From Parcubacteria group bacterium (GTDB lineage: Bacteria > Patescibacteriota > Minisyncoccia > Phycocordibacterales > CALRBT01), in NCBI GenBank assembly GCA_943354475.1, contig CALRBT010000001.1, positions 23,807-87,806 of the forward strand: a DNA stretch of 64,000 bases. Reading direction: 5' to 3'. Below, one piece after another: positions 1 through 61,437 of this stretch. The notes under the pieces are model-generated. The model ran no database searches. It saw only the letters and a list, made by a program, of their open reading frames with translations, and was not told where the DNA came from. How positions within the stretch are numbered: the stretch's first letter is position 1; the number at the start of each line of letters is the position of its first letter. Position numbers and translations under genes: made by a program.

Positions 1-17
1 CGCACTTGTTTTCATAT

Positions 18-92
18 CGCGGGATAGAGCAGCAGTAGCTCGTCAGGCTCATAACCTGAAGGTCGTTGGTGCAAATCCAACTCCCGCAACCA
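18..92 (+). tRNA. tRNA-fMet (initiator, anticodon CAT), CCA encoded
   Basis: Cloverleaf folded by hand: acceptor cgcggga/tcccgca with a C1:A72 mismatch, A11:U24 in the D-stem, anticodon loop ctCATaa, T-loop tgcaaat, discriminator A plus CCA. Confidence 0.8.
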
Positions 93-111
93 AATTGAAG
101 TTTTTTCCAAG

Positions 112-270
112 CGAAGCTGAATTCATATTTTTTGTAAGCGTAGCGATCCATGCAAAAAAGTATGAATTCATGTCGCGGATATCTCGACAGAGATACAAGA
201 CAAGAAGTTACAAAAAAGCTTAAATTTGCGTCGCGGGTGTCCCGATAAGGGATACCAAGACGTAAACTGG
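112..270. repeat. Cluster of degenerate ~55-bp repeats (caaaaaag-N13-gtcgc-hairpin); copy 0 is inverted, copies A and B are direct; a third direct copy lies at 916-975
   Basis: Copy A 152-205, copy B 210-265, copy C 916-975. Hairpin stems differ between copies but stay fully paired: tatctc/gagata, ggtgtccc/gggatacc, ctgtttctc/gagaaacag. Confidence 0.6.
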
Positions 271-281
271 TTTTATGATTG

Positions 282-316
282 AAAAACAAAAACCCCAATT
301 GGGGTTTTTGTTTTTC
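282..316. terminator. Bidirectional rho-independent terminator-like palindrome
   Basis: gaaaaacaaaaacccc-aatt-ggggtttttgttttt is a perfect palindrome with A/T tracts on both sides. Confidence 0.6.
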
Positions 317-670
317 GTGGTTGCGGGAGTAAGAGGATTAAAAACTTTTCATTTGGAATGTATGTTGTAACATTAAGATAAGCAAATAATCCTATTTGCT
401 TGGGTGGAGTCAAGAGAATGTTCGAAGATCCTCCTGTTGCACATGAGGGTGATGATCTGGATCCCTCCAAAGGTATCGTTTGGGCGATTGAAATGTCGCT
501 GGTATTGTACGGAGTACCTTTCTTGTTTTACAGGCTCATTGGAAGCATCCTTTGATGCTGGATCAAAAATAGGGTCGACCGAGGCTATTGCTGAGGTCGA
601 CCCATGTTGTTTCCATACGGGACTCTAGTCATTGAAGGGATTCATTTCTTATGGTATTGTGCACGGTATT

Positions 671-744
671 GTCGGTGTAGCTCAGGTAGTTAGAGCATGG
701 CACTCATAAAGCCAAGGTCGAAGGTGCAAGTCCTTCCACCGACA
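671..744 (+). tRNA. tRNA-Met elongator (anticodon CAT; could instead be tRNA-Ile2 lysidine type)
   Basis: Acceptor gtcggtg/caccgac, D-arm gctc-aggtagtta-gagc, anticodon loop ctCATaa, T-arm gaagg-tgcaagt-ccttc, Y11:R24 (elongator), no CCA encoded. Confidence 0.75.
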
Positions 745-867
745 CAAACGAAGTGCGTGGGGTGGAGCAGTGTGTCTGCACACACTGCACAAGGACTTGC
801 AGGCCGGAGCATGTCGCTTCAGCGACGGCGAGGTGGGGTCGCGACCAGCGAAGCTGAGTTGTGACCA

Positions 868-888
868 AGTCCTTCCACCGACACATGA
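868..888 (+). repeat. Partial direct duplicate of the 3' end of the 671-744 tRNA (T-loop/acceptor, 19-21 nt)
   Basis: caagtccttccaccgacaca occurs at both 726-745 and 869-888, with no matching 5' tRNA portion at the second site. Confidence 0.6.
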
Positions 889-1068
889 ATTTGAGTTTTT
901 TGTGAATGAAATGATCCTTACAAAAAAGCTCAAATTCACGTCGCTGTTTCTCGCATAGAGAAACAGCGACGTGAACTGAAGCGCGCGTGGTGGAGCAGTG
1001 TGTCTGCGCAGTAAGATTTATACACATTTTGGTTAGGTGAATACCCTGTCACGAGATATAATAAATTT

Positions 1069-1740
1069 GTGCCAGTATATAAAAAAGTAAATAAAAAGTT
1101 TTTTAAAATGTGGAGCCAGGAAATGGCATACGTACTTGGTTTTTTTGCTGCGGATGGATATATCACAGTGAACAGAAGGGGTGGACAATTTTGGTGCATA
1201 CAAATTGTTGATAAAACACTTCTCATGCAAATTAAAAAAAATATCGGTTCTGATCATAAAATTAGCGAGCGGAATCGTGGGGGAAACGAAAGCACGATAT
1301 ATCGGCTACAGATTGGCAGTATTGAGATGTGTGACGATTTACGAAAGTTAGGCTTTACCGAGAGAAAAACGAAGAGTCTGGCGGTTCCAAATGTTCCAGG
1401 GGAATATCTGGGAAGCTTCACTCGAGGATATTTTGATGGGGATGGAAATATTTGGCTTGGATATTTACACAAGGAAAGAGGTGTACCAACATTGTCTCTC
1501 CATGTAGCTTTCACTTCAGGTTCAGGAGATTTTTTAAGTACCTTACAGCTTAGATTAAGAGAGATAGGTGTACATGGTGGTAGTTTGGTGAGGCCTAAGG
1601 AAAACTACCATCGATTACAGTATGGTCTTCGTGACTCTTTGAAATTATACGAATTTATGTATAATGGCCTAGATACATCGAAATTATTCCTGAAAAGGAA
1701 AAAAGATGTATTTGAGAAGTATATACGTATGCGGCTGTAG
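1069..1740 (+). CDS. LAGLIDADG homing endonuclease (double-motif type)
   Basis: Two LAGLIDADG-like motifs, LGFFAADGYI and RGYFDGDGNI, separated by about 100 aa; the last 10 nt overlap the tRNA 5' exon at 1731. Confidence 0.8.
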   Translation: MPVYKKVNKKFFKMWSQEMAYVLGFFAADGYITVNRRGGQFWCIQIVDKTLLMQIKKNIGSDHKISERNRGGNESTIYRLQIGSIEMCDDLRKLGFTERKTKSLAVPNVPGEYLGSFTRGYFDGDGNIWLGYLHKERGVPTLSLHVAFTSGSGDFLSTLQLRLREIGVHGGSLVRPKENYHRLQYGLRDSLKLYEFMYNGLDTSKLFLKRKKDVFEKYIRMRL

Positions 1741-2023
1741 CTCAACGGTAGAGCACTCCCCTGTAGATATTGCAGCTTTCTGTCGAAAGGGCAGATTGAA
1801 ACTCTTTGGGATATCGGTGAAGGCTAAACTAGTCGCCAATCTGGTAACTGGCATGCGAATACCGAGGGAACCCCTCCTTACAGGGAGGGGGCGCCGTAGA
1901 GACTAGATACCGAAGCACCTACTTGTACATTCTGTACTTATGGTGAAGATATAGTCCACGCCATTATGAAAATAGTGGATAAGTGCACGGGAGAGGCCGT
2001 GGGGTCAGCACCCATCAGCCGCG
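1731..2023 (+). tRNA. Putative tRNA-Asp(GTC) interrupted in the anticodon loop by a group I intron (exons 1731-1764 and 1986-2023)
   Basis: 5' exon gcggctg-ta-gctc-aacggta-gagc-a-ctccc-ctgt has an ideal acceptor and D-arm. 3' exon cac-gggag-aggcc-gtggg-gtcagca-cccat-cagccgc-g has a 7/7 acceptor complement. The spliced anticodon loop ctGTCac equals the canonical tRNA-Asp loop. The T-loop is non-canonical (G54, G58), which lowers confidence; Ala(TGC) is the alternative splice solution. Confidence 0.45.
1765..1985 (+). ncRNA. Group I self-splicing intron (tRNA-type, IC3-like), no internal ORF
   Basis: R-element-like gtagagactaga and S-element aagatatagtcc (P7 strands) are present. P9 hairpin ccattat-GAAA-atagtgg, terminal omega-G at 1985, a P1 candidate ctgt|agatatt-gcag with a U.G pair at the splice site, and an aaaggg P4-like segment. 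Confidence 0.6.
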
Positions 2024-2330
2024 CAAAATTAAGCCCTTCAACTCAGTAGATCATTCTACTGAATGAGGGGTTTTAATTTTGCGCGGCTGAAGCGAGTAAA
2101 CTGCTTTACTCGCGTTGGGTGCTGACGGACGGAGCTATGTTTTGGTACCAACCAAAACGAGTGAGTCGGGGTAGCGAAATTTTCGAGCGGACGGCGAGAA
2201 AATATTCGTGACCAGCACCCATCAGCCGCGCCAAACAAAAATATCATAGCTTATGCTATGATATTTTTGTTTATGAGCTTGGCCAAAGAAAGTGAAATTT
2301 TTCACTTTCGTCCGATTTGAACAAGCGGAG
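2005..2330. repeat. Dense palindrome/hairpin cluster, including a nested cruciform built on the tRNA 3' acceptor strand and a second copy of cagcacccatcagccgcgc at 2212-2231
   Basis: tcagccgcgcaaaattaa...ttaattttgcgcggctga long-range stem with inner hairpins tcagtaga-tcat-tctactga and gcgagtaaa-ctgc-tttactcgc; also gttttggt-acc-aaccaaaac, the perfect palindrome aaacaaaaatatcatagc-ttat-gctatgatatttttgttt, and gaaagtgaaa-ttt-ttcactttc. Confidence 0.55.
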
Positions 2331-2435
2331 CCAAGTCGCTTTAGCGACAGGCGAGCTCGGGGAGGAAGTTCTTAATGAGCGAAGCGAATTTAGAAACTTG
2401 ACCCTCAAATCCGGTTGGCCGCGCATAGTTTTTAA

Positions 2436-2774
2436 GTGTTATTTAAAGGTACGAAATCCCTTATGGAGTTAGGGACGGAGAACTGGTATAATATATGTAT
2501 ATATATGTTACAAAAACTAGGATTAGAAAGAAACCACTTTTTATTAGCATTGATACCTTGGGCAGCTGGAATAATTTCATTTCCTGTAGTTCTTTTCTTT
2601 GCTTCTCATGTGATGCTGGTTGCAGGGATTATTGTTTTAGTCGTATGTTGGGCTAAAAAAGGAGTTGGATATGCTGGAAAAGTTTTTTTGGCATTTATAA
2701 TACTAAGCATTGTTTGGTACCTGCTTAGTTACATTTTTTCATTGTTAGGATTTGGTTGGAAGGCGCTAGTCTAA
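2436..2774 (+). CDS. Small integral membrane protein (hypothetical)
   Basis: 112-aa ORF with three hydrophobic helices; terminator follows. Confidence 0.5.
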   Translation: MLFKGTKSLMELGTENWYNICIYMLQKLGLERNHFLLALIPWAAGIISFPVVLFFASHVMLVAGIIVLVVCWAKKGVGYAGKVFLAFIILSIVWYLLSYIFSLLGFGWKALV

Positions 2775-2840
2775 TATACACACTAGTATTATTTCTTATC
2801 TCAAATCCAGTTCTAACGTCATCCACTAGTCCGCGCAAAT

Positions 2841-2867
2841 AAAAACCGCCATTGGGCGGTTTTTGTG
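2841..2867 (+). terminator. Rho-independent terminator
   Basis: aaaaaccgcc-attg-ggcggttttt. Confidence 0.7.
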
Positions 2868-3010
2868 TGGCTGAGAAAGGTGTGGGGCACTCTCAAGTTT
2901 TTTACTTGAAGAAATAATGAGTAAAACGTTTAAGTTTACTTTTCTTTCGATTACTGTATATTTCAGCCAGATAGGTATCAGATACTCGGGGAAAACAAGG
3001 AGGATACATA

Positions 3011-3547
3011 ATGTCTGCTCCAAAAGAACTTGCGTCAAATGTTGTAGAAGTAGAATTTTTCTTTATTGATCCATCAAATTTGTCGCTAAAGGAATTTTCT
3101 AGCCAAGCCGTAAACCGGTTAGAAGACGGTGCTCATTTGCAGAAGACGATCAGGTTCTACGATACGCATAGTCTTATTAGCCAACTTGTTGTTAAGTATA
3201 ATGAAGAAAATAACCGTCACGCCCAACTACTTGATAAAATTTTGGCAGTAGGTTTTTGGAGAAGAAAAATTATCTGTTGGCAAGCAGGTAAAAAATTGGA
3301 AGCATGTGTGCAGATACGTGAAAGGCTCCATCGTTTAATTGTATTCCAATTAATGACGGCAATTCGCATCTCGCCAGTCATTGCAATAGAGAGTAATACT
3401 GGTCGGTCGTTTCGGATGATCGAAGGAAATGAATTATACGAATTAGCCACTTCAGTAGAGAAGTCTGTAAGATGTTGGGTCTTTGTATTTCCACCAAACG
3501 ATACTTTACTGTTTGATGGAATTGAAATGCTGGGGTCTGTAATGTAG
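3011..3547 (+). CDS. Hypothetical protein
   Basis: 178-aa ORF preceded by the strong SD aaggagg 7 nt upstream; terminator downstream. Confidence 0.55.
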   Translation: MSAPKELASNVVEVEFFFIDPSNLSLKEFSSQAVNRLEDGAHLQKTIRFYDTHSLISQLVVKYNEENNRHAQLLDKILAVGFWRRKIICWQAGKKLEACVQIRERLHRLIVFQLMTAIRISPVIAIESNTGRSFRMIEGNELYELATSVEKSVRCWVFVFPPNDTLLFDGIEMLGSVM

Positions 3548-3557
3548 GTATTGGTCT

Positions 3558-3596
3558 GCCACCGTTCGCGTAAGCGAACGGTGGCATTGTGGTTTA
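3558..3596 (+). terminator. Rho-independent terminator
   Basis: gccaccgttcgc-gtaa-gcgaacggtggc followed by attgtggttt. Confidence 0.7.
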
Positions 3597-3659
3597 TGGG
3601 TTTAGGGGGGTAAAGAGAACTCGCAAAATATACATTTTTCTGATATTGTTTTTTGGCGA

Positions 3660-3800
3660 CATCCTTGGAGCTGAACTAGGATGCCGTGTGCCGAGTGTGG
3701 GTCGTGGCTAGAGCCAACAAACCCTTGCGGCCGTATCGGTCACCGGAACTCATCTCTCCCTTGACCGATCCCCACCACGACCCACACACCGTCAAACAGC
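3660..3800 (+). ncRNA. Candidate structured RNA (GC-rich ~60% segment with a long-range stem), unclassified
   Basis: gtgtgggtcgtgg ... ccacgacccacac long-range pairing encloses internal hairpins. GC content sits far above the ~38% background, there is no ORF of 60 aa or more, and it lies directly upstream of tRNA-Thr. Confidence 0.3.
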
Positions 3801-3853
3801 TTTTGATCTTTGTTCTAGTACCAGAGGATCATGATTTTTGATCCTCGAATTAG

Positions 3854-3926
3854 CCAATGTAGCTCAGTTGGTAGAGCACGTCCTTGGTAAGGACGAGGTC
3901 TCCGGTTCAATCCCGGACATTGGCTC
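3854..3926 (+). tRNA. tRNA-Thr (anticodon GGT)
   Basis: Acceptor gccaatg/cattggc, D-arm gctc-agttggta-gagc, anticodon stem cgtcc/ggacg with loop ttGGTaa, T-arm tccgg-ttcaatc-ccgga. Confidence 0.85.
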
Positions 3927-3969
3927 CGCAAAAACATACTTAATTTGATTCTGTAGTAGAATAGAGTAA

Positions 3970-5067
3970 ATGCAAACAAGACTTATTCTGTTAGTGATTT
4001 CGTTTGTCTCAATGGTGGTAATTCTGACCAGCGCTTCTTATTTACACGCACATCGTCTTGAAGCTACCTTGATAAACTATAGACAAGCTAATAAAGAAAT
4101 TACACAGCCTCAGCTAAAGAAAGAAAAAATTTCTCAAAACGAAGGGGATATCTCACTTATTGCGGTTGGGGATATTATGTTATCGAGAATTGTTGCAAGT
4201 AAGATAAAGACCAACAAAGATCCTTACTATCCTTTTTTAAACACCACAGATTATTTAAGAGATGCTGACATCACCTTTGGGAATCTTGAAAATCCCATAA
4301 CCGCAGGTCGAGCCATTGAAGTACATGAAATGGTTTTTCATGCCGATCCTGGTATGGAAAAGGTGCTTGGGGACGTTGGGTTTGACGTACTCTCGCTTGC
4401 CAACAACCATTCACCAAACTTTGGAGCAAAAGGATTGATTGATACTTTTAGCTATTTAGACCAGGTTGGTGTTCTGCACCCTGGTGCAGGCAAAACTTCC
4501 AAAGAGGCAAACTCGCCGGTGTACATTACTCGCAAAGGCAAGACCTTTGCATTTCTTGCATATAACGATCCTGATGTAGTACCAAAGGAATATGAAGCGA
4601 CTGAAAAAAGAGCGGGAACGGCTTTTATGAGAAGTGAGAAAATGATTGAATCGGTAAAAGAGGCAAAACAAAAAGCAGATTTTGTTATCGTCTCAATCCA
4701 CTCTGGTAAAGAGTACACAAAGATTCCAAATACATCGCAAACCAATTTTGCACACAAAGCAATCGATGCAGGGGCTGAAATGGTTATCGGACATCACCCT
4801 CACGTTATCCAATCGGTTGAGAAGTATAATGGAAAATATATTTTGTACAGTTTGGGCAATTTTGTTTTTGATCAGAGGTGGGAAGAAACCAAGCTTGGTT
4901 TATCTGCGAAAATATTTTTTAACGAACAAGGGGTTAGAGAGATTTCATTTTTTCCGATTATGATTCGAGATTTTTCTCAACCAGAAATACTGAAAGGGGA
5001 AATTGCAACCAAAACTCTAGAGCGACTAGGTGAGCCGTTTGCACAGGGCTCGATTATTGTTCAGTAA
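3970..5067 (+). CDS. CapA/PGA_cap family metallophosphatase-like protein (poly-gamma-glutamate biosynthesis CapA homolog), N-terminal membrane anchor
   Basis: IAVGDIMLSR, GNLENP, NNHSPNFG and SLGNFVFDQ motifs typical of the CapA/YwtB family. Confidence 0.7.
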   Translation: MQTRLILLVISFVSMVVILTSASYLHAHRLEATLINYRQANKEITQPQLKKEKISQNEGDISLIAVGDIMLSRIVASKIKTNKDPYYPFLNTTDYLRDADITFGNLENPITAGRAIEVHEMVFHADPGMEKVLGDVGFDVLSLANNHSPNFGAKGLIDTFSYLDQVGVLHPGAGKTSKEANSPVYITRKGKTFAFLAYNDPDVVPKEYEATEKRAGTAFMRSEKMIESVKEAKQKADFVIVSIHSGKEYTKIPNTSQTNFAHKAIDAGAEMVIGHHPHVIQSVEKYNGKYILYSLGNFVFDQRWEETKLGLSAKIFFNEQGVREISFFPIMIRDFSQPEILKGEIATKTLERLGEPFAQGSIIVQ

Positions 5068-5156
5068 TAGATTACATAGAAAAAACGAAAAGCACGGATT
5101 CGTTTTCGGCGCGCGCAGAGCGCGCGCCTGAAACGATACCGTGCTCCTAAGTAAAC

Positions 5157-5447
5157 TCAATCGGCGTCGGGAAGTTGATATGGTATGCGTGGTTCGCGCA
5201 TAGCCTGGTCATATTCATCCAATGGATCGGTTCTGCCCGTTTCGGGAGGAACTAGCAGTACCACCTTCTCGCCACCTGTTCCGAGAGAATCCCTCAGGTC
5301 ATCAGACCCGTCTCCACTTGGGCCAACTCCAATTCCACTTGGTGAGACAGGTGATTTTTTGAGAGAATCTCCTGGCTGTTTCCCGCAGACATCGAAACCA
5401 AAACGGTCCATCGTTCGTTTTCTCCACATAGAACTTATCCAGCCCAT
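5157..5447 (-). CDS. Hypothetical protein in a GC-rich island (alternative: the overlapping + strand ORF 5185-5505)
   Basis: GC ~55% segment in which both strands are open. The minus ORF is convergent with capA and shares a hairpin region at 5080-5130; the plus ORF is followed by a hairpin at 5551-5578. Real coding strand unresolved. Confidence 0.25.
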   Translation of the reverse strand: MGWISSMWRKRTMDRFGFDVCGKQPGDSLKKSPVSPSGIGVGPSGDGSDDLRDSLGTGGEKVVLLVPPETGRTDPLDEYDQAMREPRIPYQLPDAD

Positions 5448-5550
5448 CTTCGTCCAATTTGTCCACGACCGGTTCGTGCGACAGATTGTTCGGATGCTGG
5501 TGTAAGGAAACTAATTTTGAGTTTATTTCCTTATATCAGAACCTGAAACT

Positions 5551-5590
5551 AACAAGACCCCATTTTGGTGGGGTCTTGCGGTTTGTGGTG
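5551..5590 (+). terminator. Hairpin terminator candidate
   Basis: caagacccc-attttggt-ggggtcttg followed by cggtttgtggtg. Confidence 0.45.
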
Positions 5591-5800
5591 AAATTTAAGT
5601 TATAAGTTTACCAACGCGCAAGACCCCGACTAAAGTATCGGGTAATCCATACAAAGACGTATGAAATTTGCGCTTGATGTAACATATATATAACTTACTC
5701 TCAGTGTCCGTTGGTGTCAAGTAACCTATGGTGTGGAAAAAAAAGATCAATCTCACAGCTTCCTTTGGGGGTAGAATTTTGATAAGGTGTGTTGGTGTTA

Positions 5801-5873
5801 GCCAGAGTAGCTCAGTTGGCAGAGCATTTCACTCGTAACGAAAAGGTCGGCGGTCCGATTCCGCCCTCTGGCT
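5801..5873 (+). tRNA. tRNA-Thr (anticodon CGT)
   Basis: Acceptor gccagag/ctctggc (7/7), D-arm gctc-agttggca-gagc, anticodon loop ctCGTaa (A31.C39 mismatch), T-arm ggcgg-tccgatt-ccgcc. Confidence 0.75.
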
Positions 5874-5874
5874 C

Positions 5875-6759
5875 ATGGAAAAAGAAAAAATACAAAAACG
5901 AATTACAGAAATCGAGGCGATGATGTCGGAAGGGAATTTCTGGCAGGATAAAGTCTTGGCGCAATCTCTAGTTAGAGAAATCCAAGAACTCAAAGAGCTC
6001 GAATTAACTGGCGGTGAAGGTGGGAAGTATGACAGAGGCGACGCTATTATCACCATCTTCTCAGGCGCAGGTGGGGATGACTCCGAAGATTTTTCTCGCA
6101 TCCTTCTTGAGATGTATCAGAAATACTTTCGCAAGAAGAATTGGGATGTTCGGGTAATCCATAGCAACGAGAATGACCACGGTGGGTATCGCAACATTAC
6201 TATTGAAATCCACGGTCGCGGTGTCTACGGCACAATCAAACACGAGTCTGGAGTGCATCGTCTGGTGCGCATCTCACCCTTTAATGCTAAGAAGCTTCGA
6301 CACACTTCGTTCTCGATGGTCGAGGTTATTCCAAAATTTGAAAAAGTAGATGAGTTCGTTATTCCTGAAGATGAGATTGAGGTAACGATGGCACGCTCGA
6401 GTGGTCCTGGAGGACAAAATGTTAATAAACGCGAGACTGCTGTCCGTATGGTGCATTTGCCAACCAAACTCTCGGTTCATGTCGAATCAGAACGCTCGCA
6501 GGCACAGAACAAAGAGAAAGCGCTTGAAATCCTCGGTGCCAAAATATATCGACTTCAAGAGGACGAGCGAATTGCAAAAGAGAAAGGAATGTATATCAGT
6601 AAAACAACCGACGCAGCGTGGGGAAATCAGATACGCTCCTATGTAACCCATCCGTACAAAATGGTCAAAGATCACCGAACCAATGTTGAGGTGAACAACG
6701 TAGAGAAAGTGTTTGACGGAGAAATCGATGAATTCATCGAAGCAGAAAAAGCTTTATAA
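5875..6759 (+). CDS. prfB: Peptide chain release factor 2 (SPF and GGQ motifs); short N-terminus, no programmed +1 frameshift site
   Basis: SPFNAKK (RF2 tripeptide motif), SGPGGQNVN, and a 'HRLVRISPF' / 'TNVEV' core. The ATG lies 2 nt after the tRNA discriminator, and an in-frame TAA inside the tRNA prevents any upstream extension. Confidence 0.85.
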   Translation: MEKEKIQKRITEIEAMMSEGNFWQDKVLAQSLVREIQELKELELTGGEGGKYDRGDAIITIFSGAGGDDSEDFSRILLEMYQKYFRKKNWDVRVIHSNENDHGGYRNITIEIHGRGVYGTIKHESGVHRLVRISPFNAKKLRHTSFSMVEVIPKFEKVDEFVIPEDEIEVTMARSSGPGGQNVNKRETAVRMVHLPTKLSVHVESERSQAQNKEKALEILGAKIYRLQEDERIAKEKGMYISKTTDAAWGNQIRSYVTHPYKMVKDHRTNVEVNNVEKVFDGEIDEFIEAEKAL

Positions 6760-6813
6760 AGTAAGACAGAAATCAGCTTGTTTTAATGTACGTTACGCTA
6801 TAAAATATAAAGA

Positions 6814-7494
6814 ATGATTTATTATGACAATGTGTCAAAGATCTATAAGGATGACTCCGTTATTCTTGATTCAATCAGTTTTGGTATAGAGCCAAAAGAA
6901 TTTGTTTCAATTGTTGGTCCATCGGGCGCCGGCAAGACAACACTCCTTAAGATGCTCATTGCTGAAGAAAAGCCAACATCAGGTAAGGTGTTTTTTGAAT
7001 CGACCGATGTTCACAACCTTTCTCGCTCAGATATTCCCAGGTATCGTAGACGTGTTGGGATGATATTTCAGGACTTTAGATTGATCCCCAACAAGACGGC
7101 CTATGAGAACATTGCCTTTGCAATGGAGGCAGCTGGACGAAGTGATGAAGAGATTCAGTCTGATGTGCCACACGTTCTTGAGTTGGTTGACCTCGCTGAC
7201 AAGATTTGGCATTTTCCTCATCAGCTCTCGGGAGGTGAGAAACAGCGTGTCGCTATTGCTCGTGCAATCGTTAATCAGCCAGATGTACTCATTGCAGATG
7301 AACCAACGGGGAATCTTGATCCGTTTAATACCTATGACGTGGTTCAAATTTTGCGGAAGATTAACGACCTTGGAACCACAGTTATCCTGACAACACATAA
7401 CAAAGGCATTATCGACTCTCTCGGCAAACGTGTTATCACGATAGAAAAAGGGAGGGTCGTACGAGACGATGCTGAAGGAAAATACGTCTTGTAA
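6814..7494 (+). CDS. ftsE: Cell division ATP-binding protein FtsE (ABC ATPase)
   Basis: Walker A GPSGAGKTT, signature LSGGEKQR, Walker B VLIADEPTGNLD; followed by ftsX. Confidence 0.85.
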   Translation: MIYYDNVSKIYKDDSVILDSISFGIEPKEFVSIVGPSGAGKTTLLKMLIAEEKPTSGKVFFESTDVHNLSRSDIPRYRRRVGMIFQDFRLIPNKTAYENIAFAMEAAGRSDEEIQSDVPHVLELVDLADKIWHFPHQLSGGEKQRVAIARAIVNQPDVLIADEPTGNLDPFNTYDVVQILRKINDLGTTVILTTHNKGIIDSLGKRVITIEKGRVVRDDAEGKYVL

Positions 7495-7524
7495 ATTTAA
7501 TTTTTTATATAATCAAAACTATCC

Positions 7525-8463
7525 ATGTTTAAATTGAGCGCGCAGAGAGTACTAAAAGCAGGATTCGTTAACTTTTGGCGAAACGCCTTCGTCTCTGTTT
7601 CAGCAATGCTTGTGATGACCATAACCCTCTTTACGATGGGTTCTCTTATGTTTCTTGGGGCCGTGCTCAACTCCTCACTTCTCCAGATAAAAGAAAAGGT
7701 AGACATCAACATTTACTTTCTTACGAGTGCTTCTGAATCAAGAATTCTCTCACTTAAGGAAACAATCGATGCGCTTCCACAGGTTGAATCCACCACCTAT
7801 CGTTCAAGAGAAGAGGCTCTGGAGAATTTCAAGAAACGTAACCAAGACGATCAGCTCGTTCTCCAAGCACTCGATGAATTAGGGGGCAATCCACTTGAGG
7901 CGGTGCTTAACGTGAGAGCTAAGGACCCATCTCAGTACGAGGCGATTTATAATTTTCTAAAACCATACATTGTCGGCCCAACTAATGCCACTGAAATCCA
8001 GGGTCAAATCATCGAGAAAGCAAACTTTAACCAGAATAAAACATCAATCGAAACACTCACTAAGGTTATCAATTCATCTCGAACGCTCGGTACTGCAATC
8101 TCCATTATCCTTATCATTATCTCAACTCTAATTGCCTTCAACACCATCCGTTTGGCGATTTACAGCAGTAAAGATGAGATTGCTGTTATGAGGCTTGTCG
8201 GTGCCAGCAATATGTTCATTCGCGGGCCGTTCATTGTGGAGGGTTCGATGTACGGACTATTCTCGGCACTTTTTGTCCTCATCATTTTCTACCCATTACT
8301 CTACTGGATTGGTCCATATAGTGCAGGGTTCTTCGGAGGGCTCAACCTCTTTACCTACTATCTTCATAATTTCCTCGAGCTCTTCGTTATCCTCGTAGGT
8401 TCAGGAGTCATCATTGGTGCTATTTCGAGTTTCCTTGCTGTCCGCAAATACCTCTCTGCTTAA
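7525..8463 (+). CDS. ftsX: Cell division permease FtsX
   Basis: N-terminal TM helix, large periplasmic domain, three C-terminal TM helices with the typical FtsX 'AVMRLVGAS' motif region; adjacent to ftsE. Confidence 0.8.
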   Translation: MFKLSAQRVLKAGFVNFWRNAFVSVSAMLVMTITLFTMGSLMFLGAVLNSSLLQIKEKVDINIYFLTSASESRILSLKETIDALPQVESTTYRSREEALENFKKRNQDDQLVLQALDELGGNPLEAVLNVRAKDPSQYEAIYNFLKPYIVGPTNATEIQGQIIEKANFNQNKTSIETLTKVINSSRTLGTAISIILIIISTLIAFNTIRLAIYSSKDEIAVMRLVGASNMFIRGPFIVEGSMYGLFSALFVLIIFYPLLYWIGPYSAGFFGGLNLFTYYLHNFLELFVILVGSGVIIGAISSFLAVRKYLSA

Positions 8464-8634
8464 AACTGGTATAAGCGGCGCACTTTTTTGTCACTACGTT
8501 GTTCATTTTTTTCGCCGTACGTTTAGTACGTCTACAAAAATAAACTTCCTTGTTCCTCTTTCAGCAGAAAGACCTCTTTGTTAAAAGACCTACTTGGTAC
8601 TGGGTCGAGGTGCATCCACTTATACCAGTTTTAA
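8463..8634. repeat. Dispersed intergenic repeat, copy R1 (inside the terminator-like stem aaactggtataag/cttataccagttt)
   Basis: Shares ttgttcattt-ttcgccgtacgtttagtacgtctaca-aaataaacttcc and the 3' module acctac-tgggtcga-tgcatcca with copies at 47997-48119, 51188-51325 and 38475-38614. Confidence 0.75.
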
Positions 8635-10552: not shown

Positions 10553-10575
10553 TGCGGGATCGTCTAATGGTAGGA
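10553..10575 (+). pseudogene. tRNA-Gln 5' fragment (23 nt), followed by an unrelated hairpin
   Basis: tgcgggatcgtctaatggtagga is identical to the first 23 nt of the tRNA-Gln at 10649. Confidence 0.5.
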
Positions 10576-10648
10576 ATGAAAAGCAAACTGCTTTGCTTTT
10601 CATCCGATTACGCGAAGCAGTAAATTGTCGTTATTTTGCGAGTAGGGC

Positions 10649-10719
10649 TGCGGGATCGTCTAATGGTAGGACACATCCCTCTGGAGGATGGTATCTAGGT
10701 TCGAGTCCTAGTCCCGCAG
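10649..10719 (+). tRNA. tRNA-Gln (anticodon CTG)
   Basis: Acceptor tgcggga/tcccgca, 3-bp D-stem gtc/gac, anticodon stem catcc/ggatg with loop ctCTGga, T-arm ctagg-ttcgagt-cctag, discriminator G. Confidence 0.8.
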
Positions 10720-10745
10720 CCGTGGTCACAAAATAGACAATAGGT

Positions 10746-10788
10746 CCCTCTGGAGGATGGTATCTAGGTTCGAGTCCTAGTCCCGCAG
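10746..10788 (+). repeat. Direct duplicate of the tRNA-Gln 3' portion (anticodon loop to 3' end, 43 nt), only ~25 bp downstream of the intact gene
   Basis: ccctctggaggatggtatctaggttcgagtcctagtcccgcag is identical to tRNA positions ~31-72. Confidence 0.7.
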
Positions 10789-10871
10789 CCACCATATGCT
10801 AAGTCAGGAGACTGACACGCATAGGCATCTATTCCGAAAATGGCATACCTGCTGAGAGCAGTATTCAAGAC

Positions 10872-20403: not shown

Positions 20404-23400
20404 ATGAAGTTTTACCCTACAAAGGGAAGTAGCGCAGGAAAACTAACAATGAGCCTCCTGCTCATTTCACTAGCTTTTTCTCCATGGGTAGGGGTATATG
20501 CAGAAGTAAATTCAGCCACTTCTACAACAATCATTGAGGAAGTTAAGTCCTCTAATACACCAGCTAACCCGACTCCAGAAGTAGTTACAGCCGAAACCTC
20601 GACCCCTGTTAGATTAATTGACCCAGTGGTAAGTACTTCAAGTCCAAGTACCCCCTCTCAAAAAGAATCTGAGCAAAAACTTTCACCTCCCGAAGAGTCA
20701 ACAGTAAATATCTCCACAACAACTCCCCAAAGAGAGGTTTTTAAAAAAGAAGTTGAGGAACCTAAAGAGCCAAAAGAAAAAGTAAAATTTAAAAAGGACG
20801 CCAGTAGATCACAAGAAGAAGAGTTGGGGTTGGTCCGTCAACATTTACTTGATCAGGGATTACCACAAACAATCGTTGATCGTTTGGATACTTACGAAAA
20901 AGAACAACGAGCAGGTCCTCCTCAAGAAGGAATCTTTAAAAAGATAGTCAATTTCGTCACGGGTAATACTGAAGCACAGAAAGAAGCACGAGAAGTCGAA
21001 GTTCTGGCCAAGAAACAACCTTTCAAGGTAGAAGGCTTTGAAGGGACTATTAATAAAATTGATGAATCAAGCTACAAGCAGCTTTTTCCTGATAAGAAAG
21101 AACAGACCAATGGATTTTTTGAAAAAGTAAAAACTTTCCTCAAGAGTGGTTCTTCTTTGAATTCAGATTTTGATGGAACTAAAAAAAGTACGCCACTCTC
21201 TTGGCTTTTTGGTGCAAAAGTGACTGCGCAAGTAAGCTCAAATCCAAATGATTATCTTGCTGCTGGAGGAGAGATAGTTTTCTCTAAGGCGATACAGGAT
21301 AAAGCCGTGACTCTCGGAGGTGATCCATTGGCTATGTTGAATTTTGTTCGCAATGATGTCGAATACACCCCTTACTTTGGTTCAAAGAAAGGATCCGATG
21401 CGACACTGGTAGAAAGTGCTGGTAATGACATGGACAAGGCTTCGCTTCTGGTTGCATTGCTACGCAATAGTGGTATTCCCGCAAGGTACAGACATGTCGA
21501 TGCCCAGATGGATATCAGGACAGTTACCGATTTGCTCGGAGTTGACTCTGCCATCGGTGCAGCACAAGTACTTTCTCTCCATAAAATACCTTACATACTC
21601 TATACACAGAACGATGAACCAGTTTTCTTTGTTGTTGAACATACCTATGTTGAAGCATATATGCCGTATGGATATAGTCGTGGTGCGAAATTAAATGACG
21701 GTGGATCCAAGCAATGGGTGCCGATGGACCCAACGATTACTGGGTATTATTACGAAAGACCTGTTGATCTCATCGACGAAATGAATAACTCAGGCTTTGA
21801 TGTTAAAGTATTTTTTGATAAATATCTAAAAGGGGATTATGGTTCTGCCATAGAACCACTTGAAGCTTTTAAAACCCTGGTACAGGGTCACTTGGCATCA
21901 AATCCGCCGGCGTCCTTTCCAGGACTAACCTACGATGATGCACTGATGCGCATGTATCCAAAAAATCAAGATACTGCTTTCATTCCAGCTACTTTGCCAT
22001 ACCAGATTTCTGCAGATCTTAATACGTATGATTACATTCCAGCTTCGCTACGCCATACACTTAAATTTACAGTAAAGAGTGATCAGGATGCCCAGGTACT
22101 TGGACATAGCGCATATCTCTCCGATCTCGCCAATAAAGAATTGCTCATCACCTTTGATGCCGCGACCCCAGTCGATCAGGCTACTATCGACTCCTTTGAC
22201 ACGATTTATGACGTTGTTCCGTTATCTTTGGTGTCGGTTACTACAAAAATAAAAGTAAACGGTGTGAATATTGCAGAAAGTGCGACACCCACCACTCTTG
22301 GAAAATCACAAAAGTATGTGATGGAGTTTGGAATACCAACTCGAGAGATTGGAGGCCCCGTTAACGCACTTGTTGAAGAGACTATCGACAAGAGTATTAT
22401 TGTAGGAAATACGGATGCAATCGGTCTTGATACTGGGCGTGTTGTACCTTCTGGACTTCGACCAAAGGAGGATATAGCAACTTCTAGTTTTGTTTCAGGC
22501 CAGATACTCTATGATACAGCTCAGGATTACCTCTACCGTCTCGAAAATACAGAAGGTGAATTGGCACGGATTATCGGAGCTGATTTTAGTGACGTTGCAA
22601 CGAGAGCAATTATTTTTAATGGAATTGCAGTGACTAATAAGAATGGCCAACCATATTCATTTGATTGGAAAGGACTTCGTATTGATGCATCCGCAAAGGT
22701 GAAGTACTTCAGTAGATTCCATGAAAGTGTTAAAACACACAAAAAAGAGTTCACTGCAGTATTTGGTCTACAAGCATCTCAAGATGAATCAGATGTCTTT
22801 GAAGATAATTTTGACGTCGAATCGGTTGCTACTGTCAAAGGATTAAAGTTGGTATCTGCGAATACTTTTAGTGGTATTACACTGAAAAAAATCAATCAGA
22901 CGAATGAAGGTGATATTGATGGACTTAACGTTACGGCGAGCACAAAAAACGTTTTCCATAGCGCTATTCAAGAAGGAAATACTATCTACACACCAACCGC
23001 TCCTATTACCTATGGTGCTTGGCACGGTCTCTTTTATATCAACATTGACTTTGATGGCGGAGAAGCCAGTTATAGTATCGGCGAAGGGCTCAATGGGGGA
23101 TATACCGTTTGTGGACTTCCAGGAATCACAAGTTTTTGTAATTGGGTTCAAGATCGGGTGGACTACTTAAGAAAAGATACCCCCATTACAAATGCCACAA
23201 TCATCTCTCCTACTAATAACCAAAATTACACAGTAGGCGATTCAATTAACTTTGAAGTTCAATACAAAACTATTGTTAACGGCGCGACCCTTAGTCAGTG
23301 GATAGAAAAGGAAACTATCAAGACTGATAATCTTGGACCAGGGACGAGGACTCTGATAACTAAATATGGAACTGGGGTGAAAGTAAACATCAAACTCAAT

Positions 23401-24192
23401 CCTAAGCCTGATCTGGGCTTGTCACTTAAGATAAACACAGCTACACAGAGTGCTGAGCAGAAATTTATCGAAGGGTTCATGGACGAGATCGCCACAGAAT
23501 ATGGTGTTGAAATCACTAATTTCCTAGCAGGTGTTGGTATCTCTGAAGGTATTCGTATGCTAACTCCTGCGATTGCAAAAAAAGTTGGCCCAACGGCTGC
23601 TGGTAAAATTGTAGCCAGGTTCATTCCAGGGGTTGGTTGGGTGTTGCTCGTCGGCTCTGCCGGAAGTATTGCATACAATGCAGGACCGACTGCTGGCAAA
23701 TGTTTTAGTTTTAGTAGTTCAATGGACGACCTGCTTTTGGAAACAAAATCTCCTTCATATTTCTGTGGCAAACTAACCGCTCAGTCTCTTTTTATTGCCG
23801 CTGGAGTGGGGACAGATAGGTTAGTGGGGAGTAAAATTAGCCATTATTTTGCAAGAAAAATTGGGATAAATACAATTATACGAAGCGCTCTTCAAACTGA
23901 GGTACGGTCATCGTTAGAATTGTACGAATTAAATAACTGGTCAAATGCTGGGAGGAGTAGTGGAACTCATGTTGGAGCGGAGTGGTTTAATAAGATAGAT
24001 TCAAATACAGGTAAAAACTATTTGCCAAACACCACAACTTATAAAGAATACGATGTATATGACAAAATCGAAGGGCAAAATAGAGGCCCACACAGATTTG
24101 TAAAAGGAGAAGATGGATCTATATATTTTACAGATAATCACTATGGTGATCCAACAGTTAATAATAGCCCCCCGTTCGTAAAAGTAGACTAA
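20404..24192 (+). CDS. Secreted polymorphic toxin: signal peptide, S/T/P/E/K-rich linker, transglutaminase-like domain (Cys replaced by Asp), C-terminal barnase-like ribonuclease domain
   Basis: TGase-like core GNDMDKASLLVALLRNSGIPARY, then His in VVEHTYVEAY and Asp in WVPMDPT. The C-terminus aligns to barnase: TYKEYDVYD~READINY, PHRFVKG~SDRIL, IYFTDNHYGDPT~IYKTTDHYQTFT. Confidence 0.7.
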   Translation: MKFYPTKGSSAGKLTMSLLLISLAFSPWVGVYAEVNSATSTTIIEEVKSSNTPANPTPEVVTAETSTPVRLIDPVVSTSSPSTPSQKESEQKLSPPEESTVNISTTTPQREVFKKEVEEPKEPKEKVKFKKDASRSQEEELGLVRQHLLDQGLPQTIVDRLDTYEKEQRAGPPQEGIFKKIVNFVTGNTEAQKEAREVEVLAKKQPFKVEGFEGTINKIDESSYKQLFPDKKEQTNGFFEKVKTFLKSGSSLNSDFDGTKKSTPLSWLFGAKVTAQVSSNPNDYLAAGGEIVFSKAIQDKAVTLGGDPLAMLNFVRNDVEYTPYFGSKKGSDATLVESAGNDMDKASLLVALLRNSGIPARYRHVDAQMDIRTVTDLLGVDSAIGAAQVLSLHKIPYILYTQNDEPVFFVVEHTYVEAYMPYGYSRGAKLNDGGSKQWVPMDPTITGYYYERPVDLIDEMNNSGFDVKVFFDKYLKGDYGSAIEPLEAFKTLVQGHLASNPPASFPGLTYDDALMRMYPKNQDTAFIPATLPYQISADLNTYDYIPASLRHTLKFTVKSDQDAQVLGHSAYLSDLANKELLITFDAATPVDQATIDSFDTIYDVVPLSLVSVTTKIKVNGVNIAESATPTTLGKSQKYVMEFGIPTREIGGPVNALVEETIDKSIIVGNTDAIGLDTGRVVPSGLRPKEDIATSSFVSGQILYDTAQDYLYRLENTEGELARIIGADFSDVATRAIIFNGIAVTNKNGQPYSFDWKGLRIDASAKVKYFSRFHESVKTHKKEFTAVFGLQASQDESDVFEDNFDVESVATVKGLKLVSANTFSGITLKKINQTNEGDIDGLNVTASTKNVFHSAIQEGNTIYTPTAPITYGAWHGLFYINIDFDGGEASYSIGEGLNGGYTVCGLPGITSFCNWVQDRVDYLRKDTPITNATIISPTNNQNYTVGDSINFEVQYKTIVNGATLSQWIEKETIKTDNLGPGTRTLITKYGTGVKVNIKLNPKPDLGLSLKINTATQSAEQKFIEGFMDEIATEYGVEITNFLAGVGISEGIRMLTPAIAKKVGPTAAGKIVARFIPGVGWVLLVGSAGSIAYNAGPTAGKCFSFSSSMDDLLLETKSPSYFCGKLTAQSLFIAAGVGTDRLVGSKISHYFARKIGINTIIRSALQTEVRSSLELYELNNWSNAGRSSGTHVGAEWFNKIDSNTGKNYLPNTTTYKEYDVYDKIEGQNRGPHRFVKGEDGSIYFTDNHYGDPTVNNSPPFVKVD

Positions 24193-60456: not shown

Positions 60457-61437
60457 ATGGCTGTTATCGACTTAGAAATTTACAAAAAAAATCACAAGAC
60501 GCAGTATTTAGCCGAAAGTTTTGAGCGTCTGCTTAAAGAGCGCGTCCAGATAGAAACTGAACTTGCCAAAGATCCTGAATTCAAAGAATTAGCCGAAGAA
60601 GAATTTAAAAATATTGACGCACAACTAACAGCTCTTGAGGGTCAGATGGCTAAGATTATTGAAGAAGACAAAGAGGAAGAGGACTTTCCAAATGAAATTG
60701 TCCTTGAAGTCAGGGCTGGTACTGGTGGAGAAGAAGCGGCCTTTTTTGCTGAGAAATTGGCGGAGATGTACCAACGTTTCGCTGAATCCAAGGGTTGGCA
60801 ATGGAAGACGATGTATGAATCACGCAGTGCCCTTGGAGGATTCAAGGAGGCATCCTTTGAGTTTCGTGGCAAAGACATTTATCGCAAACTCCGCTTTGAG
60901 ACAGGGGTGCATCGTATCCAACGAATTCCCGCAACCGAGAAATCTGGCAGAGTTCACACGTCGACCGCTTCAGTTGCTATTTTGCCCATTAGGATAAAAA
61001 GCAAAATTGAGATTAATCCATCAGACATTGAAATGGAGTTTTCTCGCTCAGGTGGTGCTGGCGGACAGAATGTGAACAAGGTTGAAACTGCAGTACGTCT
61101 CATTCACAAACCGACAGGAATTGATGTTCGTTCGACCGCAGAGCGTAGCCAGCAGAAGAACCGGGAAAAGGCGATGGGAATTTTGATAGCAAAGCTAGAA
61201 GTTCTTAAAGAGGAAGAAGAAGCCAAAAAACACGCCTCAAATCGGAAAAGTCAGATTGGTACTGCAGATCGATCAGAGAAAATCCGCACCTATAATGTAT
61301 TGCAAGACCGCGTCACCGATCACCGCATTAGAGAATCTTGGCATAACATCGAAGGTATTTTTGCAGGGGATATTGAAGATATTGTCGAGAAACTGAACAG
61401 TGCCGATGAATTCAGCGAAGAGTCTTCAGAGGAGTAA
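60457..61437 (+). CDS. prfA: Peptide chain release factor 1
   Basis: PAT tripeptide motif (RIPATE), GGQ ([10 protein letters not shown]), RSQQKN. Confidence 0.85.

Follow-up and report, generated by a model that had tools for sequence, protein, structure and literature searches.

Repeated tRNA ends in the window

Partial copies of transfer RNA (tRNA) genes lie next to the intact genes in a 64,000-nt stretch of DNA from a Parcubacteria group bacterium (NCBI GenBank assembly GCA_943354475.1, contig CALRBT010000001.1, positions 23,807 to 87,806 of the forward strand). This whole stretch, referred to as the window and numbered from its first letter, contains three copies of a small structured element which we designate Y. 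Y1 follows the gene tRNA-Met2, and Y2 and Y3 lie in series after tRNA-Asp (Table 1).

The copies listed in an original prediction, which had been made from the sequence alone, proved to be real, with slightly shifted borders at most sites. The 20-mer at the end of tRNA-Met2 (CAAGTCCTTCCACCGACACA, positions 727–746) is present again at 866–885, not at 869–888, and the 19-mer at the end of tRNA-Asp (2006–2024) recurs at 2213–2231 (previously 2212–2231). At tRNA-Gln the downstream copy comprises 46 nt (10676–10721, tRNA positions 28–73) located at 10745–10790, instead of 43 nt at 10746–10788; it follows the gene after a spacer of 23 nt (previously ~25 bp), and the first 23 nt of the gene are duplicated at 10553–10575 exactly as had been reported. 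The inverted copy given as 12 nt of a tRNA-fMet at 320–331 consists of the last 13 nt of tRNA-Met1 at 318–330. What had been called a putative tRNA-Asp is a genuine tRNA-Asp(GTC), whose anticodon loop is interrupted by a group I intron (Rfam Intron_gpI, match at 1769–1978, E = 2e-8; the exons were read from the sequence). Further inverted copies were found for the tRNA-Met2 end (11 nt at 791–801) and, in two pieces, for the tRNA-Asp end (2078–2090 and 2116–2126), and a third element with an older tRNA-Asp-like fragment at 2405–2425 had been overlooked. By our estimate, chance would yield ~4e-5 exact matches of at least 19 nt per 64 kb on both strands, and the background of tRNA-segment matches elsewhere in the window did not exceed 10–13 nt. 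No such copies were found for the three tRNA-Thr genes of the window.

That the repeats arose from mis-joined reads at tRNA genes is so improbable as to be negligible. Window positions 1–8547 and 284–3886 are 100% identical in two further assemblies (L229 from ERZ27280259 and L230 from Logan ERR3719150), and the segment with tRNA-Met2, Y1, a LAGLIDADG endonuclease gene, tRNA-Asp, Y2 and Y3 is 100% identical across three assemblies. Because these assemblies stem from different samples, we do not regard the repeats as assembly artefacts; the architecture also recurs in dozens of unrelated metagenome-assembled genomes (MAGs) and contigs. The one hint of such an origin is Logan contig L002, which ends inside the tRNA-Gln repeat (window position 10705).

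Table 1 Positions of tRNA genes, tRNA copies and Y elements in the window. R1 is a covariance model built only from metagenomic copies of the element.
Feature	Position	Strand	Evidence and remarks
tRNA-Met1 (CAT), CCA gene-encoded	18–92	+	ARAGORN; Rfam tRNA, 62.2 bits
Perfect 18-bp hairpin directly before the inverted tRNA-Met1 copy	281–316	+	Inverted repeat I8
Inverted tRNA-Met1 3' end, 13 nt including CCA; resembles the antisense-acceptor part	318–330	+	
tRNA-Met2 (CAT)	671–745	+	ARAGORN; Rfam tRNA
Y1, imperfect antisense of acceptor 3' strand, GTGGGGTGGA	757–766	+	Predicted fold: pairs with 875–884
Y1, 9-bp hairpin with CTGC loop	767–788	+	Hairpin scan, predicted fold
Y1, antisense of T loop and T-stem 3' strand, AAGGACTTGCA	791–801	+	Inverted 11-mer
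Y1, core: P2, GGAG/CGA internal loop, hairpin Pa, GGGG, hairpin Pb, terminal GTGAC	802–865	+	R1 match 791–877, 46.1 bits, E = 7.5e-12; fold energy z = −4.3
Y1, sense copy of tRNA-Met2 3' end, C56 onward	866–885	+	20/20 identical to 727–746
Partial repeat of Y1 5' part: antisense-acceptor and half of CTGC hairpin	978–1010	+	D5; 88% identical to 750–782
tRNA-Asp (GTC): exon 1 1733–1766, intron 1767–1985, exon 2 1986–2023	1733–2023	+	
Y2, hairpin X	2024–2077	+	Inverted repeat I1, 36-nt arms, 81% complementary
Y2, antisense of acceptor 3' strand, discriminator base and trailer	2078–2090	+	Inverted 13-mer
Y2, 9-bp hairpin with CTGC loop, GCGAGTAAACTGCTTTACTCGC	2092–2113	+	Hairpin scan, predicted fold
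Y2, antisense of T loop and T-stem 3' strand	2116–2128	+	Inverted 11-mer 2116–2126
Y2, core	2129–2212	+	R1 match 2116–2224, 40.2 bits, E = 3.9e-10; fold energy z = −7.5
Y2, sense copy of tRNA-Asp 3' end, C56 onward	2213–2231	+	19/19 identical to 2006–2024
Y3, older: hairpin 2288–2309, antisense T 2311–2321, core of the GGGGAGGAAG...CTTGACC subfamily	2288–2404	+	R1 match 2311–2417, 32.7 bits, E = 6e-8
Y3, fragment TCAAATCCGGTTGGCCGCGCA, Asp-like 3' end with canonical T loop	2405–2425	+	Complementary to 2311–2321
Copy of tRNA-Gln first 23 nt	10553–10575	+	23/23 identical
12-bp hairpin with CTGC loop, adjoining the tRNA-Gln 5' fragment	10576–10603	+	
tRNA-Gln (CTG)	10649–10721	+	ARAGORN; Rfam tRNA
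Copy of tRNA-Gln positions 28–73 after 23-nt spacer	10745–10790	+	46/46 identical

Architecture of the Y elements

The window belongs to the cellular genome of a Patescibacteria bacterium (Paceibacteria/Parcubacteria type), and its DNA is also contained in NCBI assembly GCA_943357905.1. MAGs labelled Saccharibacteria, Paceibacteria or Kaiserbacteria encode CTP synthases with no more than 77% identity to that of the window, and the gene order tRNA-Met, tRNA-Met, tRNA-Asp, tRNA-Thr, tRNA-Thr, prfB, ftsE, ftsX, pyrG, tRNA-Gln is common to these MAGs. With regard to close relatives of the window genome, the next CapA homologue shares just 60% identity, and the 178-aa neighbour proved to be an orphan.

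Eighty syntenic loci of related MAGs were scanned for exact tRNA copies of at least 14 nt within 1 kb. The last 15–24 nt of the tRNA (approximately positions 54–75) recur in direct orientation 110–200 nt downstream of tRNA-Met, tRNA-Asp, tRNA-Gln and tRNA-Thr genes of many genomes; the original prediction had called for such a comparison. Placed side by side, the spacers are homologous, and 21 tRNA/fragment pairs, drawn from the window and from 16 related MAG loci, revealed a shared architecture. The intact tRNA gene is followed by a hairpin (X), an antisense copy of the tRNA end, a core with three helices, and a sense fragment of the tRNA that begins at C56. The Y elements are 100–190 nt long, and the core accounts for ~65–100 nt. 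The antisense copy spans the last ~12–25 nt of the tRNA; in many cases a CTGC-loop hairpin (consensus GCGAGnAAACTGCTTTnCTCGC) interrupts it at the boundary between T stem and acceptor. The core consensus reads RRS-CGGAG, hairpin Pa, CGAG-NN-GGGG-TCG, hairpin Pb and CGTGAC, after which the tRNA fragment starts at C56; this sense copy reaches the tRNA 3' end and in some cases extends into the trailer. Besides this core (class 1), an unrelated class 2 core composed of ACCTTGTGAG, a hairpin, CACAAGGTGTACTGA and a hairpin with a TGTAA loop occurs between flanks of the same kind (L007, L029, L031, L073).

In the window, Y1 and Y2 share a predicted fold in which the fragment pairs with the antisense acceptor segment in an outer helix and with the antisense T segment in an inner helix, accompanied by a branch hairpin and the three-way core. 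The arms of hairpin X of Y2 (2015–2050 and 2055–2090) extend into the tRNA acceptor 3' strand and into its antisense copy, respectively. In Y3, helices Pa and Pb read as closely similar to those of an element at L005 4118–4221, and the fragment differs from the present tRNA-Asp.

Two registers were distinguished. In type a (~45 cases), the antisense copy stops opposite T54 and the sense copy comprises 17–26 nt from C56. In type b (~25–30 cases), the tRNA contributes its last ~5 nt, which together with the trailer pair with the antisense segment in a long hairpin; the tip of this hairpin is often the CTGC loop, and only 'CAC(A)' is repeated after the core; here the closing helix was not above the permuted control (3.6 vs 3.1 pairs). 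Overall, C56 of the T loop, a base close to the 3' end or, at tRNA-Gln, position 28 is the first base of the sense copy, and T54 and T55 are absent from the C56 repeat. The original description of copies running from the anticodon loop to the 3' end therefore applies to tRNA-Gln only, as the dominant register starts at C56. At every site the inverted segments equal the local tRNA end, and the length of the direct repeat ranges from ~3 to >35 nt. Since the antisense copy continues into the genomic trailer and not into a CCA tail, it is matched to the gene or to the primary transcript rather than to the mature tRNA. Priming by mature tRNA, in analogy to a primer-binding site, was rejected as unlikely on this ground. 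Sense and antisense copies differ from the tRNA at similar rates (69 and 53 differences per 470 positions, respectively), as expected if both were copied from the tRNA at element formation and drifted thereafter; an apparent excess of conservation in the antisense copy vanished under strict Watson–Crick counting. CTGC-loop hairpins are scarce, with three in the 64 kb, all inside these elements, and 16 in 1.34 Mb, and this scarcity rules out dispersed palindromes of the REP (repetitive extragenic palindromic) type.

Model R1 found no Y core after the inverted copy at 318–330 and gave zero matches between tRNA-Gln and its 46-nt copy. A degenerate antisense of the tRNA-Gln 5' end follows the 12-bp hairpin at ~10604–10615, and mirror-image 5' versions exist at tRNA-Gln in L029 and L082.

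Some neighbouring tRNA sequences deviate from the norm. The T arm of the window tRNA-Asp (1999–2015) is non-canonical, with the T loop GTCAGCA compared to TTCRANY. The Y2 flanks share this odd loop, and the older fragment at 2405–2425 retains a canonical TTCAAAT loop; conversion from an element copy may have replaced the 3' part of tRNA-Asp, or this part may have come with the intron and endonuclease allele. Upstream of Y cores in L005 (at 3970–4050), L221, L213 and L126, sequences of the type GTTC|TAAC...TCCAC... take the place of a normal tRNA; these may be 3' regions of tRNA or transfer-messenger RNA (tmRNA) genes with another kind of insertion after the T-loop GTTC, or decayed genes. In L015 (6782–6865), L021 (6566–6629) and L023 (1632–1710), the first 16–24 nt of tRNA-Thr(CGT) are copied upstream of the gene and followed by AGCCGACGGCTCATTCGTGAC, which looks like a 3' end of the tRNA-Thr(GGT) type with a Y-like CGTGAC terminus, and the arrangement may have been left by recombination involving both adjacent tRNA-Thr genes and an element.

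A conserved, covarying core

On the tRNA strand, the core adopts a conserved fold with covarying pairs. RNAalifold, applied to 56 diverse copies, yielded helix P2, the base of Pa and a long Pb helix. Paired cells amounted to 97.4% compared to 84.8% in shuffled alignments, and double (compensatory) changes were seen in 130 cells compared to 31. The covariation score of 0.34 was attained by none of 500 shuffles (0.096 when shuffled) and dropped to 0.02–0.05 with the partners slid. As the selection of sequences had required P2 pairing, P2 was recounted with unambiguous anchors and no pairing filter, and its central pair was formed in 87 of 91 copies (CG 29, GC 24, AT 22, TA 9). On the tRNA strand, non-invariant G-U pairs numbered ~14 vs 7 A-C mismatches.

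Searches of Rfam 15, which includes models of self-cleaving ribozymes, omega RNAs, retron RNAs, Y RNA and tmRNA, yielded nothing but tRNA and the group I intron at E-values up to 5, and neither class 1 nor class 2 matched a model. We also found no description of such elements in the full-text literature searched. The Y elements are a widespread family of the Patescibacteria that is absent from Rfam and from this literature. A group I intron identity was rejected, because only the tRNA-Asp anticodon-loop intron matches such a model and Y follows the complete tRNA. The core carries conserved purines in its junction and internal loop (GGAG/CGA, GGGG), and in a comparison made by eye only, the consensus of the hammerhead, of group II domain 5 and of the k-turn did not fit it.

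Distribution across metagenomes and tRNA types

A scan of metagenome contigs with the pattern CGAGNNGGGGTCGAG, a gap of 25–55 nt and CTCGTGAC recovered at least 120 loci. Among the matches listed in all loci analysed, a tRNA gene was located upstream on the same strand in 80 of 126 instances, and in 70 of these 80 the tRNA end was 66–131 nt away from the CGAG motif of the core; none of the 126 had a tRNA on the opposite strand alone. The associated genes covered ~37 anticodon classes and essentially all amino acids. Sixteen of the 46 instances lacking a detected tRNA were situated at contig ends, at least four were preceded by tmRNA-like 3' ends (judged by eye), one followed an intron-containing tRNA and one was a chance match. 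In viral contigs, a 14-nt core pattern gave 23 matches, all of them by chance inside unrelated sequence. Model R1 detected 19 matches in the 80 related loci, 13 of which were located 22–252 nt after a tRNA (7 Asp, 3 Met, 2 Thr, 1 Gln).

Inserts of 180–260 nt that ARAGORN calls introns are common in tRNA anticodon loops of the related genomes, namely in L003, L005 and L007 (tRNA-Arg GCG), L016 and L032 (tRNA-Thr GGT), L006, L031 and L081 (tRNA-Asp), and L143. The insert in the L031 tRNA-Asp matches the Rfam group I intron model (E = 2.6e-6). When run without its intron option, ARAGORN overlooks these tRNA genes.

Filled and empty sites, arrays and cargo

A filled and an empty site were found around a pair of tRNA-Thr genes in loci L076 and L081, the flanks of which are 89–100% identical. 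In L081, tRNA-Thr(GGT), 7 nt and tRNA-Thr(CGT) succeed one another and a single copy of a 20-mer is present. L076 contains an extra 138 nt consisting of a hairpin, a 12-nt perfect antisense T segment and a core, including a second copy of the 20-mer (TCCCATCGACGGCTCAAAAA). Next to an identical tRNA-Gln, three loci contain a full element (L079), its left part only (L081) or none (L076).

Successive elements and increasingly decayed fragments form arrays after one tRNA in L159, L123, L139 and L110, with the decayed copies distal to the tRNA. The Y2/Y3 pair of the window and the truncated Y1 repeat at 978–1010, which ends at the start of the LAGLIDADG gene region, are of this array kind. Cores that are 94–98% identical adjoin different tRNAs on different contigs, for example Ala and Glu or Asp and Gly.

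A core with its fragment also closes inserts of 2.2–9.7 kb. These islands carry an AAA_21 (putative AbiEii-type) ATPase (L145, 2.9 kb), an inositol monophosphatase and a radical SAM/SPASM protein (L021, 3.5 kb), a RelB/ParE toxin-antitoxin pair (L203, 2.2 kb), and a helicase plus a large serine recombinase which abuts tRNA-Glu (L180, 9.7 kb; recombinase at 86–1645). The recombinase has Resolvase, Recombinase and Zn_ribbon domains, and L180 is the only one of these islands, which end in a Y core, in which a recombinase was found. The scanned open reading frames (ORFs) of the islands include no tyrosine integrase (PF00589), and those of L145, L021 and L203 no recombinase domain. Homologues of the L180 recombinase adjoin tRNA-Gln in a number of related genomes but are not accompanied by tRNA fragments; the L180 gene may therefore be part of another island, inserted between the tRNA and a pre-existing Y element. 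No large serine recombinase homologue was found in the window.

Large serine recombinase genes are present near pyrG in many related Patescibacteria (L076 7001–8281, L009 6287–7390, L051, L019, L023, L028, L061). In L076 and L009 the gene lies just downstream of tRNA-Gln and is not accompanied by tRNA fragments; compared with L079, L076 contains ~7.7 kb at tRNA-Gln, and a tRNA fragment is missing from the distal end of this DNA. In this clade, tRNA-Gln seems to serve as a hot spot for islands.

Interpretation of the Y elements

We consider it somewhat probable (roughly 0.55) that Y elements are miniature non-autonomous mobile elements which, together with related small islands, insert into tRNA and tmRNA genes, either at the T loop or at the 3' end, while the gene is kept. 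The sense copy is one arm of a direct repeat bracketing the inserted DNA, and the 'empty' site holds exactly one unit. Y would integrate and excise through its tRNA-like segment, as tDNA islands (islands in tRNA genes) do, with the gene being regenerated, and the sense fragment would remain as the second arm of the direct repeat, being either the original 3' end in displaced form or a duplicate produced on insertion. The antisense copy would pair with the sense copy, and a single-stranded form (RNA or single-stranded DNA) would show the attachment segment as a duplex beside the core, which might act as a recognition or guide module for an enzyme supplied in trans. Y1, Y2 and Y3 would be cargo-less miniature versions. 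The tRNA-Gln repeats and the inverted tRNA-Met1 copy could be related events or core-less remnants; those at tRNA-Gln may reflect a different, simpler event of the same general kind. The original view of the fragments as integration marks survives with regard to insertions at the 3' part of tRNA genes, and loses its attribution to tyrosine integrases. Its suggestion of small tRNA-targeting elements gains partial support from the filled/empty pair, the nested and tandem copies, the versions with cargo and the occurrence at nearly all tRNA types and behind tmRNA-like 3' ends. The notion that only remnants of a lost element persist is not supported, as a whole conserved element with covarying helices and a uniform size occupies the intervening space.

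Several observations weigh against this interpretation. The antisense and sense flanks always match the local tRNA, even where its T loop is odd (window tRNA-Asp, L076 tRNA-Thr). A pre-formed element could do so only if the flanks were re-copied in place or served as guides that are occasionally re-programmed, or if the tRNA travelled along. Re-copying could possibly occur by template switching or gene conversion; a hint that the tRNA moves with the element comes from L076 and L081, whose tRNA-Thr(GGT) alleles are very different, and from the window tRNA-Gln with its 'tRNA within a tRNA' arrangement. The L076 tRNA-Thr(GGT) differs strongly from the L081 allele, and replacement may explain the filled/empty pair. 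Both tRNA-Asp and the Y2 fragment bear the new 3' end, which is not what a single Campbell-type crossover with an older allele predicts. The ~25–30 type b copies almost lack a flanking repeat and their closing helix is unsupported. Recurrence of Asp-associated copies in ~9 related genomes is also compatible with vertical inheritance of a useful RNA. No excised form of Y was observed. Within 4 kb of the 120 copies listed, ORF clustering revealed no enriched recombinase, transposase, reverse transcriptase or nuclease; the top clusters consisted of housekeeping genes, apart from one antisense artefact. In agreement with the original statement that the window lacks an integrase gene, no integrase, transposase or reverse transcriptase domain is recorded for its called genes at ~1–20 kb and 26–64 kb.

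A tentative extension, which we hold to be rather unlikely, is that the core is the scaffold of a programmable guide for RNA-guided or RNA-catalysed homing to tRNA genes. The antisense 5' and sense 3' flanks would pair with both strands of the targeted gene (tRNA or tmRNA) between its T loop and 3' end, and a trans-acting recombinase, a reverse transcriptase or RNA catalysis would insert the element and thereby duplicate the 3' end of the gene.

Among the alternatives to mobility, a resident, non-mobile small RNA is the one to be considered most seriously, although we deem it unlikely. Its closing helix would mimic the acceptor/T minihelix of the neighbouring tRNA, including acceptor strand, discriminator and CA, and it could be matured by RNase P, RNase Z and the CCA-adding enzyme or excised by RNase III; gene conversion between repeats 120–200 bp apart would maintain the tRNA identity and selection for pairing the antisense copy. 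The strong conservation and covariation of the core, the excess of G-U pairs over A-C mismatches on the tRNA strand, the folding of outer helix, branch hairpin and T-stem-like helix as predicted in Y1 and Y2, and the recurrence of Asp-associated copies in many related genomes all agree with this idea, and the hairpin that often follows the fragment could define a transcript end. However, the distribution is sporadic, a filled/empty pair and decayed nested copies exist, and the sense fragment and the antisense copy decay at similar rates. Many copies also lack the antisense-acceptor part, type b is entirely without the minihelix, two unrelated cores occur between the same flanks, the module terminates cargo islands as well, and the antisense follows the genomic trailer instead of the mature CCA end. 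Neutral replication errors, in which hairpins beside highly structured tRNA genes provoke template switching and create a direct-inverted-direct triplication of the tRNA 3' end with a hitch-hiking or locally conserved core, are quite improbable. Two switches would indeed produce the order sense, hairpin, antisense, sense, and tRNA end, hairpin X and antisense together form long near-perfect palindromes (e.g., I1); both copies track the local tRNA exactly, and 5'-side mirror versions exist at tRNA-Gln. Such errors leave unexplained why the same core sequence and fold occur in at least 120 loci at all tRNA types, why the T54/C56 register is invariant despite non-palindromic T loops, and why near-identical cores lie beside different tRNAs.

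The explanation favoured at the outset, classical tyrosine-integrase scars left when islands or prophages were deleted and only displaced 3' fragments and junk remained, is very improbable. It would account for the direct repeats of tRNA 3' ends, for registers that resemble known tDNA subsites (PMC4383910) and for tandem arrays, which are known for such islands, and it suits best the tRNA-Gln case with its 23-nt spacer and no core. Elsewhere, the intervening DNA is conserved, covarying and of uniform size in at least 120 loci, and the C56 sense repeat lacks T54 and T55 and hence a complete T loop. An antisense copy of the tRNA end is neither present in nor predicted for attachment-site scars. 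The called window genes and the scanned island ORFs yielded no tyrosine integrase, no recombinase family is enriched nearby, and the one island recombinase is a large serine enzyme. For tRNA-Met2 and tRNA-Asp, this explanation is largely refuted.

Comparison with known systems

tRNA genes are classic landing pads of mobile DNA, and to our knowledge the known systems at these genes depend on a protein integrase carried by the element. In tDNA islands, crossover subsites lie in the anticodon loop, the T loop and the T/acceptor junction; tandem arrays occur and 5' fragments are rare (PMC4383910). Y resembles these islands (Islander) in targeting the 3' part of tRNA/tmRNA genes, in leaving the gene intact with a directly oriented 3' fragment at the far end of the insert, as we found on testing, in having anticodon-loop, T-loop and 3'-end registers and tandem arrays, and in island cargo that includes toxin-antitoxin and defence-like genes. 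By this analogy, a mobile Y would follow the logic of tDNA islands, while differing from them in several respects: most copies are only 100–190 nt long and gene-free, the scanned ORFs contain no tyrosine integrase in cis, a covarying fold lies beside the fragment together with an antisense copy of the tRNA end, and one core family is found at essentially every tRNA type. Elements with large serine recombinases offer a further comparison, as such a gene lies within one island that ends in a Y core (L180) and homologues adjoin tRNA-Gln without fragments (L076, L009).

Structured non-coding modules of ~100–200 nt at an element end are typical of IS110 (bridge RNA) and of IS200/IS605 TnpB/IscB (omega RNA) elements, in which the scaffold is conserved and the target-matching segments vary; right-end RNAs of TnpB carry a ~20-nt target-identical segment 3' of the scaffold. 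Y likewise has a conserved scaffold with flanks matching ~37 anticodon classes (among the matches listed) and tmRNA-like ends, and a ~20-nt target-identical segment 3' of the core. It differs in that no IS110, TnpB or IscB-type family was enriched or adjacent in the neighbourhood of the 120 copies listed, no Rfam omega-RNA model matched, the target-matching segments pair with each other and cover both strands of one site, and the target is duplicated. In the CTX phage attP(+) site, used by XerCD, and in integron attC sites, inverted repeats make a single strand present a duplex recombination site; structure is conserved beyond sequence, the recombinase acts in trans, and the targets are dif or attI. 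Inverted repeats, a conserved structure and the proposed recombinase in trans are common to Y, whereas those systems do not target tRNA genes and lack a multi-helix core of 65–100 nt, and a single-stranded DNA stage of Y would be hypothetical.

R2 and LINEs (long interspersed nuclear elements) move by target-primed reverse transcription, site-specifically in a structural RNA gene, and their RNA 3' end carries target sequence. Y similarly has a target duplication with one fixed end beside the 3' end of the element and one variable end, but it is tiny, has no linked reverse transcriptase among the 120 copies listed, and its antisense copy would be unexplained. Miniature inverted-repeat transposable elements (MITEs) are small, gene-free and multi-copy, with terminal inverted repeats and flanking direct repeats, all of which describes Y too. 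The 'terminal inverted repeats' of Y, however, are target-derived and site-specific in sequence, its direct repeat is long and variable (3 to >35 nt) instead of a target-site duplication of fixed length, and its orientation and position relative to tRNA genes are strict. MITEs and classical DNA transposons were ruled out, as Y has no element-encoded terminal inverted repeats and no fixed target-site duplication.

The presence of one core at essentially every tRNA type, with flanks that image each gene, is the signature of a retargetable, guide-like module. If confirmed, Y elements would constitute a novel class of structured RNA (or folded DNA) and offer the small-genome Patescibacteria a new way of acquiring and losing islands with defence and toxin-antitoxin genes, and they might provide a compact programmable targeting module. 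Guide-directed homing, if true, would differ from CRISPR-associated transposons, IS110 bridge RNAs and TnpB omega RNAs. On the practical side, Y elements create pseudo-tRNA fragments and break short-read assemblies at tRNA loci, and they can overwrite tRNA 3' ends, of which the odd T loop of the window tRNA-Asp may be an example.

Other features of the window

A LAGLIDADG endonuclease ORF at 1124–1740 (205 aa, weak PF14528 match) ends within the first bases of tRNA-Asp, its stop codon TAG being tRNA-Asp positions 8–10, and the group I intron itself contains no ORF. A link between LAGLIDADG genes and Y was rejected, and the window gene is treated as a separate element, because homologues are near only ~6 of the 120 copies listed, with inconsistent positions and strands and no fixed arrangement.

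A second palindromic repeat family, unrelated to the Y core, is situated twice after tRNA-Met1 and once after the Y1 fragment (107–262 and 886–982). Its units, TTACAAAAAAGCTyAAATTyrCGTCGC, lie at 150–176, 208–234 and 918–944, and long hairpins extend over 118–170, 883–941 and 928–982.

The first ATG of a PCRF/RF-1 release-factor ORF (5875–6759, labelled prfB) abuts tRNA-Thr(CGT) (5801–5874) with zero spacer. The gene calls for prfB differ, a 278-aa version starting later than one of 294 aa, and a second release-factor gene is located at 60457–61437. Two large ORFs at 20404–24192 (1262 aa) and 24894–29534 (1546 aa) have no Pfam annotation on record, and the NCBI MAG contig begins inside the latter.

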